In this document: piece after piece, positions 1-35,983 of the stretch
Layout: each line of letters begins with the position of its first letter
How positions within the stretch are numbered: position 1 is the first letter of the stretch
Source of the DNA: Candidatus Micrarchaeota archaeon
GTDB taxonomy: Archaea; Micrarchaeota; Micrarchaeia; Anstonellales; Bilamarchaeaceae
Assembly: GCA_038046765.1 (NCBI GenBank)
Contig: JBBSVN010000003.1
Span: 1 to 64,000, forward strand
Direction of reading: 5' to 3'
DNA: 64,000 bases
Made by a program: the position numbers and the translations under genes
Notes under the pieces: generated by a model
Told to the model about the DNA's origin: nothing
What the model saw: the letters and a program-made list of their open reading frames with translations, nothing else
Database searches by the model: none

Positions 1-175
1 CGCCGCGGTAAAACCAGCGCCTCGAGTGGTACCCACGAATATTGGGCCTAAAGCGCCCGTAGCCGGTTTTTAAAGTCTTCTGTGAAATGATGGAGCTTAA
101 CTCTATCGCGTGCAGAAGATACTTCCAAACTTGAGAGCGGGGGAGGGCAGGAGTACTCCCGGGGTAGGGGTAAAA

Positions 176-216
176 TAGTTTTTAGTTCCCAAAATTGGGT
201 TCTATAACTTTTATTA
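176..216 (+). other. 41-nt hairpin intron in 16S rRNA (690-loop region)
   Basis: Removal restores GGGGTAAAATCCG. AT-rich hairpin; BHB helix GTAA(170-173)/TTAT(211-214) with 3-nt bulges. Confidence 0.85.
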
Positions 217-291
217 TCCGCTGAGCCTGGGAGGACTACCAGTGGCGAAGGCGCCTGTCCAAAACGCGTCTGACGGTGAGGGGCGAAAGCG

Positions 292-327
<36 letters not shown>

Positions 328-432
328 CGCTGTAAATGATGCTGACTTCGGTGTTACCCAGGAGTAATCCTGGGTATTGCTGTAGGGTAGCTGTTAAGTT
401 AGCCGCCTGGGGAGTACGATCGCAAGATTGAA

Positions 433-482
433 AAGCTTTTGATAACGAATATACTCTAAAAATTATCAAGAGTCATCAATAC
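433..482 (+). other. 50-nt hairpin intron in 16S rRNA (about E. coli 908)
   Basis: Removal restores TGAAACTTAAAGG. Canonical BHB ATTG(427-430)/CAAT(477-480) with 3-nt bulges; inner stem GCTTTTGATAA/TTATCAAGAGT. Confidence 0.92.
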
Positions 483-521
<39 letters not shown>

Positions 522-651
522 TGCTACGGTTCAATTGGATACAACACCGGGAACATCACCATTGGCGACGGCAGTATGAAAGCCAGACTAAAGATCTTGC
601 TTAACGAGCCGAGAGGTATTGCATGGCCATCGTCAGCTCGTGGTGTGAATT

Positions 652-683
<32 letters not shown>

Positions 684-1404
684 TGCCTTTAGTTACTAAC
701 TTCATCTGCGGATGAGGTGTACTCTAAAGGGACTGCCCGTGCTAAATGGGAGGAAGGAGTGGTCGACGGTAGGTCAGTATGGTCCGAAACCGATGGGCTA
801 CACGCGGCATACAGTGGATAAGACAACGGGCTGCGACTCCGAAAGGAGAAGCTAATCCTCTAAACTTATTCGTGGTCTGGATCGAGGGTTGCAACTCACC
901 CTCGTGAAAATGGAATCCCTAGTAATCGCGGGTCATCAACCCGCGGTGAATGTGTCCCCGCTCCTTGCACACACCGCCCGTCAAGTCATCCAAATATCTT
1001 TTCGATGAGACTTAGGTTATTGCCTAGTTCGAATCGAAAGGGTGTGAGGAGGGCTAAGTCGTAACAAGGTATCCGTAGGGGAACCTGCGGATAGATCACC
1101 TCATAAAAATTTTATAATCATTGTGTGCAAAAAGCGCGAAATTCATAAAAAAAGATCGCGTGAAGAATACGCTAATTCATTATACATTTAATTTCCGTCA
1201 GTAAAACTTGAAGTGTAAGAAAATAACTTTTCTTATTTTATTATTTAATAATTAATTAATTTTTAATTTTATTTATTTAATTTTAGGATTAGCGATAGCT
1301 AGGTTTAACTATTTAATTTTTAAAAAATTATCTTTTAGAACTAGTTTTTAATTTTCGTCTTTCTTTTATTTGATTTCTTGCCGACTCTTAAACTCAGTAA
1401 AAAA

Positions 1405-28230: not shown

Positions 28231-29136
28231 TTGTTGCATATGAAATTACTTTCCGATGATGAAAAAATGCTTAGCTGTGTTGAACTTAAAGAAGATCAAA
28301 TAAATGTTCTTTCTAGTGACAGAATACAAATACTTAAAATGTTAAGTTCCCGGCCTATGTATCCAGCTGAAATCGCCCGCATGTTAAAAATTCAAATACA
28401 AGCCGTTTACTATCATATTAAAATTCTAAAAGATGCTGAACTTATAAAATTCTCAGGTTACGAAGAAAAACAGGGTGCAATAGCAAAAACTTTTTCTATT
28501 AATTCAAATGCAATTGCAATTGTAATCAATGAAAAAGGTTGGAAAAAATATTCTCCAATAAACAGGTCTATTCCAAAAATTATTTCTCCCTTTATTAATC
28601 ATGATATTTTCGACGCAAAATTTGTTCTTGGTTCTCCTGAGCCTCACGGCAAATACAGGGCACGTGGAAGTGAATTTACCGTACTTGAATTAGCAATGTT
28701 GTTTGGTAATTATGCTGCATTTTATCCGCCAATTTATCTTCTTGATACCCAGATTCAACAAAAAAATCTTGAAGAAAATCTTATTCTGGCAGGAGGGCCT
28801 AAGGTAAATACTATTGTAGAAAAAATAAATAGCTCTTTAAAAATCGGGTTTACCTTGGATATGACCAGAATATATAGTAAACTATCGAAAAAAACTTACG
28901 GGGGGAATGTCGGTCTAATTGAACTTATGCAAAATCCTTTTGACAATAGTAAATCTATATTAACTATAAGCGGGTTAAATCATGCAGGTACGAGGGCAGC
29001 TACGCTAAGTCTAATAAAAAAACTTAAAGAGGTTGAGCAAGGTAATAGCATAAATTCAAATATTTTGGCTAAGGTTGTCGAAGGATTCGATGAAGATGGG
29101 GACGGAATCGTTGATAATGTTGAAATTTTAGAATAA
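28231..29136 (+). CDS. ArsR-like wHTH transcriptional regulator, divergent from glmS
   Basis: RIQILKML..YPAEIAR..VYYHIKIL N-terminal HTH; C-terminal NLILAGGPKVN domain. Confidence 0.8.
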   Translation: MLHMKLLSDDEKMLSCVELKEDQINVLSSDRIQILKMLSSRPMYPAEIARMLKIQIQAVYYHIKILKDAELIKFSGYEEKQGAIAKTFSINSNAIAIVINEKGWKKYSPINRSIPKIISPFINHDIFDAKFVLGSPEPHGKYRARGSEFTVLELAMLFGNYAAFYPPIYLLDTQIQQKNLEENLILAGGPKVNTIVEKINSSLKIGFTLDMTRIYSKLSKKTYGGNVGLIELMQNPFDNSKSILTISGLNHAGTRAATLSLIKKLKEVEQGNSINSNILAKVVEGFDEDGDGIVDNVEILE

Positions 29137-29458: not shown

Positions 29459-29584
29459 TGCTAAAAAGTTGATTATAATTATTAATCATCAACTTTTATG
29501 TATAATTTTACTTATTTTCGTTTATTTTCTCCAACATCTTAGCAAAAGCTTTATAAATCTTTTCTTCGTTTGTTATTTCCCTTC

Positions 29585-29822
29585 GATGTTTTTTCGGATG
29601 GGAAAAAGGACAATTCGGTTGCCCTGAAAATGGTGCGACAATACCGGCCTCTATCTAACATTATGGCCATAAATATGAAGACTGGACTATAACTCTTCAT
29701 ATGAAACCCCTGTTAGGTAAGCATTGTGTATCTGCGCGAAAGAGATAACCTTTAAAGCGAACGAATGGGTTAAGATTTCAATCCGTAGTCGTTTAAGGAA
29801 CTGCTTTCACCGAGTCCAGTTT
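29585..29822 (+). ncRNA. candidate structured ncRNA with long-range pseudoknot (family not recognised)
   Basis: TATA-like TTTATAAA about 30 nt upstream, many nested helices, loop-to-3'-end complementarity, T-run after; no credible ORF. Confidence 0.6.
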
Positions 29823-29856
29823 TAATTAATTTTTTATTTAATAACCTGTGATTTTG

Positions 29857-30048
29857 ATGGCAAAATTAAAGAAAAAATTAAAAGTAAAGTCTTCTTCTAA
29901 ACCTAAATTAAAAACTAAGTTAAAAAATAAGAAAAAGGGTAAATCTGTTTCTAAAAAACAATTGGCATTAAAGTATCGTGGACCTAGTGGAAAAAGTAAA
30001 GCTTCAAAAGTAGCTAAATTAGTTAAAAGGGCTACTGGGTTAGCTTAA
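29857..30048 (+). CDS. 63-aa highly Lys-rich basic protein
   Basis: MAKLKKKLKVKSSSKPKLKTKLKNKKKGK...; no acidic residues. Confidence 0.7.
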   Translation: MAKLKKKLKVKSSSKPKLKTKLKNKKKGKSVSKKQLALKYRGPSGKSKASKVAKLVKRATGLA

Positions 30049-34428: not shown

Positions 34429-34507
34429 GTTCTATAAATTCGTTTGTTTTAATTATTTAATACTATTAAACTTGTTTTTGAATATACTTATAGGGGTGTT
34501 TTTTAAA

Positions 34508-35983
34508 ATGTCATTTGAACAAAAAGAATTCAAAAAACCAGAATTTACAAAAATAAATGATTACATCTGGGAGATTCCAACTAGTTTTAAACAAGGTATG
34601 CGTGTTCCAGCAAGAATTTACGCAACAAAAAAGATACTCGATGCAATAGATTTACATGTTTACGATCAAATTACAAATGTTGCAACGCTACCTGGAATTG
34701 TAAATCATGCCTATTGTATGCCTGATGGCCACTCTGGGTACGGATTTCCAATTGGCGGAGTAGCTGCAATGGATATTAACAATGGCGGAGTAATTTCGCC
34801 AGGAGGAATCGGGTTTGATATTAATTGCGGTATGCGTTTAATCACTACAAATCTAACTATAAAAGATGTTCAACCGAAACTAAAAGAATTAATCGATCTT
34901 TTATTTAAGCGTGTTCCAGCTGGAGTTGGAAGCGAAGGATTTGTAAAAATGAACAAAACTGAATTTAGGCAGGTTATTGAGCAAGGAGCCAGGTGGTGCG
35001 TAGACAAGGGCTACGGTTGGCAGGAAGATTTGGAAGTAACTGAACTAAACGGTTGCTTCGAAGACGCAGATAATACAAAAGTAAGCGGCAAAGCCGTTGA
35101 ACGTGGTATGAATCAAATCGGAACACTTGGTTCAGGAAACCATTACCTAGAAATACAACATGTAAAAGAAGAAAATATAATCGATAAAGCGCTTGCTAAA
35201 AAATGGGGCATATTCCCAGATCAAATCGTTATTATGTTTCATTGTGGTTCACGTGGTTTTGGTCACCAGGTTGCAACTGATTATCTTAATCTTTTCTTAA
35301 GTGTTATGGAAAGTAAATACAAAATAAAGATACTCGATCGAGAATTAGCATGCGCTCCGTTTAATTCTCCTGAAGGCCAGGATTATTTTAAAGCAATGAA
35401 ATGCGCAGTTAACATGAGTTTTGCAAATAGGCAAACAATCGTTCAAAGAATAAGGGAAGCATTTTCAACTGTTTTTAAGGTTGATTCTGAAAAACTTGGT
35501 ATGAAACAAGTTTATGATATTGCACATAATCGGGCTAGCGTTGAAAAACATTTAGTTGATGGATCATGGAAAGAATTAGTTGTGCATAGAAAAGGAGCAA
35601 CCGCAGCCTTTGGCCCAAATCGACCCGAAGTTGTTGCTAAATACCGAGAAGATGGTCAACCAATCATGATCGGCGGAAGTATGGAAACTGGAAGTTACTT
35701 ACTTTCTGGTTTAGAATCTGGTGCTCAAACCTGGTACACAACAGCGCATGGTAGCGGACGAACGATGTCACGAACACGAGCTAAAGGCCAGTTTAGGGGA
35801 GACGAGCTACTAAAAGACATGGAAAAGCGAGGAATTTATGTTAAAAGCGTTTCAAATGCTGGAGTTGCTGAAGAAGCGGGCGCTGCATATAAAGATATTG
35901 ATGAAGTAATCGAAGCAGCTCATCTAAGCGGAATATCTAATAAAGTTGTTAAATTAATTCCGATTGGGAATGTTAAGGGGTAA
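34508..35983 (+). CDS. rtcB: RNA-splicing ligase RtcB
   Basis: MPDGHSGYGFPIGG, GFDINCG, GSGNHYLE, HRKGAT, HGSGR, EEAGAAYKD. Confidence 0.98.
   Translation: MSFEQKEFKKPEFTKINDYIWEIPTSFKQGMRVPARIYATKKILDAIDLHVYDQITNVATLPGIVNHAYCMPDGHSGYGFPIGGVAAMDINNGGVISPGGIGFDINCGMRLITTNLTIKDVQPKLKELIDLLFKRVPAGVGSEGFVKMNKTEFRQVIEQGARWCVDKGYGWQEDLEVTELNGCFEDADNTKVSGKAVERGMNQIGTLGSGNHYLEIQHVKEENIIDKALAKKWGIFPDQIVIMFHCGSRGFGHQVATDYLNLFLSVMESKYKIKILDRELACAPFNSPEGQDYFKAMKCAVNMSFANRQTIVQRIREAFSTVFKVDSEKLGMKQVYDIAHNRASVEKHLVDGSWKELVVHRKGATAAFGPNRPEVVAKYREDGQPIMIGGSMETGSYLLSGLESGAQTWYTTAHGSGRTMSRTRAKGQFRGDELLKDMEKRGIYVKSVSNAGVAEEAGAAYKDIDEVIEAAHLSGISNKVVKLIPIGNVKG

Follow-up and report, generated by a model that had tools for sequence, protein, structure and literature searches.

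A circular, pseudoknotted RNA of DPANN archaea with a splice motif at its ends and a proposed basic peptide partner

To our knowledge, large conserved noncoding RNA (ncRNA) classes are rare, and those whose descriptions we found are bacterial. The OLE, raiA, ROOL and GOLLD RNAs are linear and are held in Rfam. Among small circles, HDV has a basic antigen, and viroid-like circles are rod-like. The archaeal bulge-helix-bulge (BHB) motif is described as a 4-bp helix between two 3-nt bulges (PMC5829648, PMC4731332), and the BHB-made circles presented in the reports consulted are rRNA intermediates, tRNA and leader introns, and a permuted universal RNA of one genus (PMC4731332, PMC7714728, PMC12918454).

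We analyzed a window of 64,000 nucleotides, the start of contig C3 of an archaeal host genome (G000, 1.5 Mb, 90% complete). The host is a Micrarchaeota-type DPANN archaeon, as a genome from its family has a locus in common with a record labeled Micrarchaeota. The window carries the gene of an RNA that appears to be a dedicated class over three phyla, with a circle as its mature form and a tertiary fold that uses the ligation junction. Processing of this kind has been described before, and the novelty apparently lies in the RNA itself, in how it folds and in its partner. The reading we favor, at a probability of about 0.65, is an accessory, splicing-matured circular ribonucleoprotein (RNP) module of DPANN archaea, whose biochemical function we infer. 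It would give EndA and RtcB, the presumed enzymes, a further class of substrate, and would offer a compact pair of RNA (206 nt) and peptide (about 50 aa) in host-dependent archaea, whose RNA biology is barely described.

Splice motif and circular RNA at the locus

On one side of the RNA gene is a 101-aa ORF that matches no known family, on the other a 63-aa basic ORF (Table 1). The TATA-like box named in the preliminary description was present where it had been placed, as were all the strings quoted there, and a TATA-like word occurred within 80 nt upstream in 144/206 loci, counted in AT-rich DNA without a shuffle control. Transcription is expected to start near 29575-29581, and the T-rich trailer might act as a partial terminator. 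Window positions 28231-29136 hold a 301-aa ORF in which an ArsR-type HTH is fused to an S-layer-C-like domain.

Table 1. Positions of the RNA gene and associated features in the window
Feature	Position	Strand	Remarks
Archaeal TATA-like box	29550..29557	+	Position conserved in alignment A1
5' exon/leader	29576..29607	+	Local hairpin in host genome (fold)
Short outer helix, AAA with TTT	29605-29607 with 29821-29823	+	Fold; outer helix of homologues usually much longer
BHB, 5' side	29608..29614	+	GGAC strand 29608-29611, 3-nt bulge 29612-29614; predicted cut 29613/29614
Mature 206-nt circular RNA	29614..29819	+	236-nt contigs (206 + 30), joint 29819->29614, 0 mismatches
P1, 5' strand	29615..29619	+	Pairs with 29809-29813; capped in circle by 7-nt junction loop
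P2 hairpin, GRAA tetraloop	29621..29634	+	Covariation, mutual information (MI) up to 0.76
P3 arm	29635..29737	+	Covariation; P3a 29635-29648/29721-29737, P3b 29654-29660/29711-29717, P3c 29673-29680/29695-29702
P3 arm loops	within 29635..29737	+	Conserved CUCU/UAA internal loop, large internal loop, apical loop L3
PK1, L3 strand CUGGAC	29682..29687	+	Kisses junction loop GUCCAG (29814-29819); compensatory changes, 3/6 pairs
PK2, strand in P3b/P3c internal loop	29705..29709	+	Pairs with 29767-29771 in L4; compensatory changes, 5/5 pairs
P4 arm	29738..29808	+	Covariation; GAAAGAG/CU(G)CUUUC helix, UA bulge, distal helix, loop L4 29767-29779
AUAA/AA internal loop of P4, conserved	within 29738..29808	+	Candidate peptide site
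BHB, 3' side	29814..29820	+	GTCC strand 29814-29817, 3-nt bulge 29818-29820; predicted cut 29819/29820
T-rich trailer, start of 3' exon	29820..29841	+	Sequence
63-aa Lys/Arg-rich ORF, motif GRxPSxKxKxSKVxKL	29857..30048	+	GTGA 29848-29851 upstream; proposed circle partner
RtcB ligase gene (expected ligase)	34472..35983	+	PF01139, E 8e-166

The two flanks of a homologue pair and enclose, in order, GGAC, a 3-nt bulge, P1, GUCC and another 3-nt bulge. All four pairs of the central splice helix were present in 68/72 loci and three of the four in the other 4 (74 loci were taken, 2 of them unparsable, with one duplicate pair). Its 5' strand varied almost only by wobble. Such G-U wobbles (e.g., 52 U-G at one splice-helix pair), together with the GRAA loop, favor the + strand, as had been proposed earlier. 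The flank duplex (n = 206) averaged -12.8 kcal/mol with a locus's own flanks versus -6.5 ± 0.19 with swapped flanks, and the outer helix reached -8 kcal/mol or lower in 155/206 loci versus 59.6 with swapped flanks. At the window locus, the outer helix has merely 3 contiguous A-U pairs, which would fit a relaxed-motif enzyme of the ARMAN type, an endonuclease type described as tolerating relaxed motifs (PMC5829648). In L100, L128 and L148, changes in the splice strand were accompanied by changes in loop L3 and in the 3' strand; in L132, the splice helix changed alone. Two members, L127:1501-1709 and L195:494-693, had an unpaired 5' splice strand and no good splice helix; the L127 RNA, which has a TATA-like word near the core and a compensated PK1, is possibly a linear form.

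The host genome contains an EndA gene as a two-repeat 409-aa frame and a second, 175-aa frame. RtcB is not a conserved neighbor of the RNA, as no RtcB cluster occurred among the recurring neighbors within 1.5 kb. Two inserts, of about 42 and 50 nt, interrupt the host SSU rRNA (window 1-1104), and at least two AT-rich ones interrupt the LSU rRNA (G000:C15:22669-25819), one of the latter apparently in the H89 loop; these inserts are probably BHB introns. ARAGORN found 8 tRNA genes in the whole host genome, or 12 with introns allowed, alongside the two EndA-type frames, and since 8 is the count in a genome that is 90% complete, the tRNA genes of the host are suggested to be heavily disrupted.

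BHB cleavage falls after the second bulge base. From this rule, an excised piece of 206 nt (29614-29819) was predicted before the RNA contigs were examined. Ten RNA runs from 7 studies contained part of the stretch, the best of them holding 0.27 of its words, about 206/701 nt. Contigs were examined in four of the ten (X1, X4, X6 and X9), leaving out X2, X3, X5, X7, X8 and X10, of which X5, X7, X8 and X10 held small shares of the stretch. The aquifer runs X1 and X4, two samples of one study, each yielded one 236-nt contig with the predicted joint, at depths of 15 and 115. The position of the joint is ambiguous by 2 letters, which leaves the circle unchanged. In X4, a relative's contig also passed from the 3' end into the 5' start, and X6 (freshwater, another study) held two contigs with a relative's 3' end ahead of its 5' start; the 8 contigs of relatives in X9 (peat) displayed no junction. 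The leader, trailer and ORF were covered by no contig in the 4 runs, which is no measure of level or absence. Assembled contigs reveal neither strand, ends nor level. The host genome has one copy of the RNA's 3' word, and the junction pattern had 0 matches in JGI metagenome contigs versus at least 120 stretches for the looser linear pattern. The X1/X4 study, from which alone the window's own circle comes, is possibly the source campaign of the host genome.

Because the joint exactly matches the prior prediction, reverse-transcription template switching at paired ends is unlikely. Four features that characterize a BHB-spliced RNA were found: the central helix with its bulges, the outer helix, a circle at the cut sites, and EndA and RtcB in the host. 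It is very probable that the circle is made via the BHB motif, and that this is a real structured RNA is virtually certain. The ncRNA of ~235 nt originally proposed is real and present in RNA libraries, but its mature length is 206 nt, and its 3' end is the splice and ligation junction, with the joint seen in RNA contigs, not a terminus before a T-run.

Distribution and covarying fold

The RNA has homologues in three phyla, Micrarchaeota, Nanoarchaeota/Woesearchaeota and Iainarchaeota. BLAST against 61 genomes gave matches in 19, lying inside the RNA in 13 other genomes (69-90% identity) and in AT-rich flanks only for the rest. An exact three-block pattern matched 59 stretches in GTDB contigs, every one labeled archaeal (Micrarchaeota, Iainarchaeota, Woese-, Pace- and Nanoarchaeota, unlabeled archaea, and 6 'Methanosarcinales'). 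The 'Methanosarcinales' labels (6/59) were treated as wrong because both genomes so labeled that were checked belong, by GTDB-family placement, to a family common to Woesearchaeota-type genomes. Covariance model R1 was searched in the RNA's own phylum, the phyla of G180 and G181, and the family of G182; with the center genome counted in each, carriers numbered 17/151, 14/151, 12/101 and 30/61 genomes, respectively. Other archaeal phyla and bacteria were covered by the strict three-block pattern only, and pattern searches for the RNA in viral contigs, phages and plasmids gave 0 matches. Since RNase P RNA was detected in 59 of the same 61 genomes of the carrier family, the patchiness of the RNA is real and more than incompleteness.

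Up to 4 copies occurred per genome (G184), and head-to-tail tandem copies 15-21 nt apart were seen in L110/L116 (G184), L063 and L200. A 105-nt mini version (23 bits) at L103:2559-2663 (-), ~0.9 kb from a full copy, has splice-motif-like ends and the P2 hairpin and lacks the long arms. On a 69-sequence RNA tree, whose backbone is unresolved and on which the phyla are not cleanly separated, the phylum labels needed 10 changes versus 24.5 when shuffled. In 3/4 genomes of genus g7, one of them with the other peptide type, the same gene lay no more than 17 kb from the RNA; the contig region was the same, and no clean empty site was found. These observations fit old vertical descent with frequent loss, and transfers are also allowed. 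Apart from the basic ORF, no neighbor recurred in more than 6/107 loci in a survey that excluded ORFs below 70 aa and loci below 2 kb. Reverse transcriptase genes were present in 27/61 genomes of the family of G182, many as frames of 320-430 or 560-600 aa; they occurred in 18/30 carriers versus 9/31 non-carriers, a weak and not obligatory link.

Three model-guided alignments were merged into 211 distinct rows, 164 of them below 90% identity, with rows of more than 40 gaps dropped. The single-sequence fold was weakly better than chance (z = -1.76; 8/200 shuffles equally good). The covariation pattern is that of a four-way junction built from P1, the hairpin P2, the three-segment arm P3 and the arm P4, with two pseudoknots. 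In alignment A3 (97 distinct of 100 rows, one row being a weak 23-bit partial match), 95.4% of the cells paired, compared with 29-42% in slid controls, and 53/59 pairs showed double changes, matched by 0/500 shuffles. The stems were fitted to the alignment model, so their support counts lean upward; both pseudoknots lay outside it. At one PK1 pair, the 164 sequences showed C-G 149, A-U 6 and U-A 3 times, and at another A-U 158 and G-C 5 times, variation that is lowered because the search patterns fixed some PK1 letters. The best PK2 pair (MI 0.57) was U-A 108, C-G 33, U-G 8 and A-U 5 times. The sense circle contained no ATG-started frame over 20 aa.

The preliminary description had drawn an interrupted rod pairing end to end. 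Because covariation backs some of its helices and rejects the rest, about half overall and most of those in the rod, the fold is now read as a four-way junction. Retained, on 164 sequences below 90% identity, are the TCGG(T)/(A)CCGA pairing, the apex helix (29654-29660/29711-29717), the hairpin (29673-29680/29695-29702) and the CTGGAC/GTCCAG pseudoknot, which is PK1. The TGAAA/TTTCA pairing had an MI of about 0, and its strands belong to the GRAA hairpin and the GAAAG/CTTTC helix (MI 0.22-0.41). TGGT/ACTG was likewise near 0 and found no support, CGAC..TAC/GTAGTCG paired in 23-54% at 6/7 positions with an MI near 0 for CGAC/GTCG, and TATCT/AGATA and the palindrome went without covariation support. 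The RNA call itself, for which covariation among homologues had been named as the check, pseudoknot included, holds on the double changes and shuffles given above. PK2, the BHB ends, the circularization and the linked basic ORF were absent from that description.

Within the window, Rfam matched only the SSU rRNA, with two chance matches in the region, and 10 metagenome loci and 4 tandem loci gave chance matches far below the cut-offs, which keeps the proposed novelty of the class. The RNase P, SRP and 5S motifs reported as missing from the locus are indeed accounted for on other contigs, as is the LSU RNA: the sole host match to RNase P RNA (RF00373) lay on C5 (48 bits, under cut-off), the match to SRP RNA on C2 (75 bits, under cut-off; tandem copies of the RNA gave none, with neither a normal nor a permuted form seen at the locus), the 5S RNA on C4 and the full LSU on C15, and likeness to a 5S or 23S piece was not above shuffles. 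Group I introns have a P3/P7 pseudoknot around P4-P6 and a bulged-A G-binding site. The RNA had no Rfam match to them and its covarying topology differs, PK1 being 6 contiguous pairs, in line with the earlier failure to find group I motifs. An OMEGA/TnpB omegaRNA was rejected, as a TnpB-like ORF (by sequence reading) lay near only 2/107 loci and splicing removes the variable 3' flank, and so was a Y RNA, the Ro60-type TROVE protein being found in 0/61 genomes. Type III toxin-antitoxin systems combine a short-repeat RNA array with an endoribonuclease toxin; here the RNA is a 200-nt unit, mostly single, and the partner has no nuclease family match. A viroid-like or retrozyme circle was set aside on the lack of a ribozyme match, a junction not found in JGI metagenome DNA and a reverse transcriptase that is not obligatory. 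Among the literature matches listed, titles and abstract starts contained no description of the RNA; the tables of circular-RNA surveys made from metatranscriptomes (e.g., 10.1101/2022.07.19.500677) may include it without annotation.

Conservation in three phyla, covariation, presence in RNA libraries and the lack of an Rfam match support a structured RNA that stands alone and belongs to an undescribed class, the first of two options originally offered. The other, a long leader, holds only in part. The RNA does lie, as an intron, within the leader of the transcript that carries the small ORF, but what is conserved is the circle cut out of it.

The basic peptide downstream of the RNA

The 63-aa ORF belongs to a family of Lys/Arg-rich peptides of 36-110 aa with invariant R, S, K, K and K. 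Downstream of 194 RNAs with enough DNA (17 loci were too short), the basic ORF was found in 167, a different, Cys-rich basic ORF in 3 and neither in 24. Among 61 genomes, 28 had RNA and peptide and 30 had neither; 2 had the RNA alone, which in one of them sat at a contig end and in the other was diverged, and 1 had just a weak peptide match. Three two-copy genomes had two RNAs and two peptides each. In the own phylum (151 genomes), the 9 genomes with the peptide were all within the 17 with the RNA, and in 7 of the 8 peptide-less RNA genomes the RNAs were diverged and lacked the AUAA/AA loop of P4. By regular expression, the peptide lay beside 159/172 loop-bearing RNAs versus 8/22 loop-less RNAs. 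P values for the co-occurrence of RNA and peptide overstate it because kin are not independent. An RNP of the circle with the basic peptide, whose binding is predicted, is likely.

The host has a stand-alone peptide paralogue at G000:C16:32766-32924, with a TATA-like word upstream, and since no RNA adjoins this second gene, a strict one-to-one rule of RNA to peptide is disfavored. The peptide matched no Pfam, NCBIfam or PDB family, and the ESM Atlas gave unnamed clusters only (best 0.87). A second partner family of about 66-75 aa, with an N-terminal four-Cys motif (MVCPKL start) and a Lys-rich tail, lies downstream of the RNA in L048, L101, L130 and L137 and replaces the usual peptide after diverged RNAs. 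In L004, 38 nt past the RNA, an early stop truncates the basic ORF to 11 codons.

Proposed mechanism, rival readings and known systems

A single precursor comprising the short leader, the structured RNA and the small basic ORF would be transcribed from the TATA promoter. The RNA ends fold as a BHB, both bulges of which the tRNA splicing endonuclease would cut, and RtcB would close the 206-nt circle that the RNA contigs show. Cutting would remove the leader GGAC and free GUCC, after which the junction loop could kiss L3, in an order that we infer. Because the 3' GUCC is engaged first in the splice helix and, after ligation, in the pseudoknot, closure of the circle may complete the fold; PK1 and PK2, with pairings backed by covariation, would lock both arms, so that the compact fold could be completed only after splicing. 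The basic peptide, from read-through or from a ligated-exon message, would bind the circle, with the AUAA/AA loop of P4 as the probable site, as suggested by the tendency of loop and peptide to vanish together. The least certain step is that the RNP may act in trans, long-lived and with a fixed binding target, like OLE, raiA or 6S RNAs; such a binding or scaffold role is put forward tentatively, at slightly under even odds. The RNP might be a scaffold or decoy for stress or dormancy and not an essential housekeeping RNA. Against the circular RNP module stand the members without a good splice helix (L127 and L195), the 3 A-U pairs of the window's outer helix, the 24/194 RNAs without a basic ORF in cis and the second host peptide gene without an RNA.

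The compact double-pseudoknot architecture could also suit a splicing-activated catalyst, either a ribozyme or a small RNP with the RNA as its catalytic core, in which the peptide helps folding. Of 208 columns, 73 are at least 90% conserved across 36-90% identity, a count partly inflated by the search patterns; the RNA has no variable single-stranded guide, its core (P1, PK1, GRAA, CCUCU and L4) is kept in peptide-less lineages, and its tandem-A internal loop may resemble the substrate dock that J4/5 forms in group I introns. We nevertheless consider this reading unlikely, as no Rfam ribozyme matched, even with tandem copies exposing permuted forms, the ends are explained by protein enzymes and no substrate is evident. 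Rather doubtful, too, is the idea that the RNA represents a novel and, within DPANN, old class of circular ribozymes or catalytic RNPs activated by splicing; if true, the active fold would be completed only once the tRNA-splicing machinery closes the ring. A cis-regulatory leader intron, whose fold senses a ligand or the peptide and gates splicing and the ORF with the circle as a by-product, has a precedent in the BHB intron reported for the HVO_1309 5' UTR (PMC7714728), and would agree with start codons 4-14 nt past the splice site in several members and with the mutual exclusion of splice helix and PK1. It is decidedly unlikely, given the 24/194 copies without such an ORF, the completion of PK1 across the ligation junction and a 200-nt conserved tertiary fold that is large for gating a 50-aa peptide.

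In a toxin-antitoxin-like pair, a harmful peptide that binds nucleic acid or ribosomes would be neutralized by the pseudoknotted RNA. The peptide occurs almost only in RNA-bearing genomes, RNA without peptide occurs, the RNA lies upstream of the ORF, three tandem cases are known and the spread is patchy; but a covalent circle makes a poor labile antitoxin, the 36-110-aa peptide has no nuclease family match and the complex fold is retained where the peptide is missing, which leaves this reading very unlikely. Patchiness (30/61, 17/151, 14/151 and 12/101), up to 4 copies per genome, no neighbor common to more than 6/107 loci and an RNA tree that fails to separate the phyla cleanly could likewise point to a selfish or mobile element, retrozyme-like or viroid-like, spreading via the circle. 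Neither the junction nor a permuted copy was found in DNA, the RNA pattern searches were negative for viral contigs, phages and plasmids, reverse transcriptase was not found in 12/30 carriers, the tree clusters by phylum (10 changes versus 24.5 shuffled) and the contig region is shared in 3/4 genomes of genus g7, so that we hold such an element to be highly improbable. That the RNA imitates functional centers of 23S rRNA (H69, H89 and the A-loop), or is a remnant of them, was suggested by short look-alike words seen by eye and by H69 as the best local match for L3 windows in one 23S, but is far-fetched: the best host 23S match was reached in 19/60 shuffles, not above chance, the H69 match in two other 23S rRNAs was equaled by 22-31/100 shuffles, the lowest shuffle count (3/100, among 16 windows) lay outside those centers, and the H69 loop of the host 23S is unlike the loop of the RNA.

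Compared with known systems, the circular RNP module resembles the OLE RNP, the raiA motif, ROOL and GOLLD, as found described, in having a complex conserved fold with unsolved biochemistry, and OLE in having small dedicated proteins; those RNAs are bacterial, whereas the present one is archaeal and has no Rfam match. With viroid-like circles, retrozymes and HDV, in the accounts found, it shares a small structured circle and, with HDV, a basic RNA-binding protein; unlike them, it has a chromosomal gene, a branched fold, no known self-cleaving ribozyme and a protein encoded outside the circle. The circular omegaRNAs of IS200/IS605 elements in Halobacterium are also archaeal, circular and pseudoknotted ncRNAs but, as presented in PMC12558985, come with TnpB and a guide and without a BHB. 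Archaeal BHB introns and circular pre-rRNAs are reported with the same splice motif and a circular product (PMC7714728, PMC12918454), and the 46-nt HVO_1309 5' UTR intron also sits in an mRNA leader (PMC7714728); in contrast to those introns, as these reports describe them, the intron here is conserved, covarying and pseudoknotted, with short, variable exons and no tRNA or rRNA flank. The closest case among the systems considered, ahead of the HVO_1309 intron and the circular pre-rRNAs and then the circular omegaRNAs, is the permuted circular SRP RNA of Thermoproteus tenax. It is, as described in PMC4731332, a universal RNA whose ends have been relocated in a single genus, whereas the present RNA has no Rfam family, spans three phyla and has its own peptide, and the host SRP RNA is normal. 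The two are alike in having their own TATA promoter, a short leader and a leader/trailer BHB, and the T. tenax RNA is reported to be circularized by EndA and RtcB with a ligation junction that forms a functional loop, as proposed here (PMC4731332).
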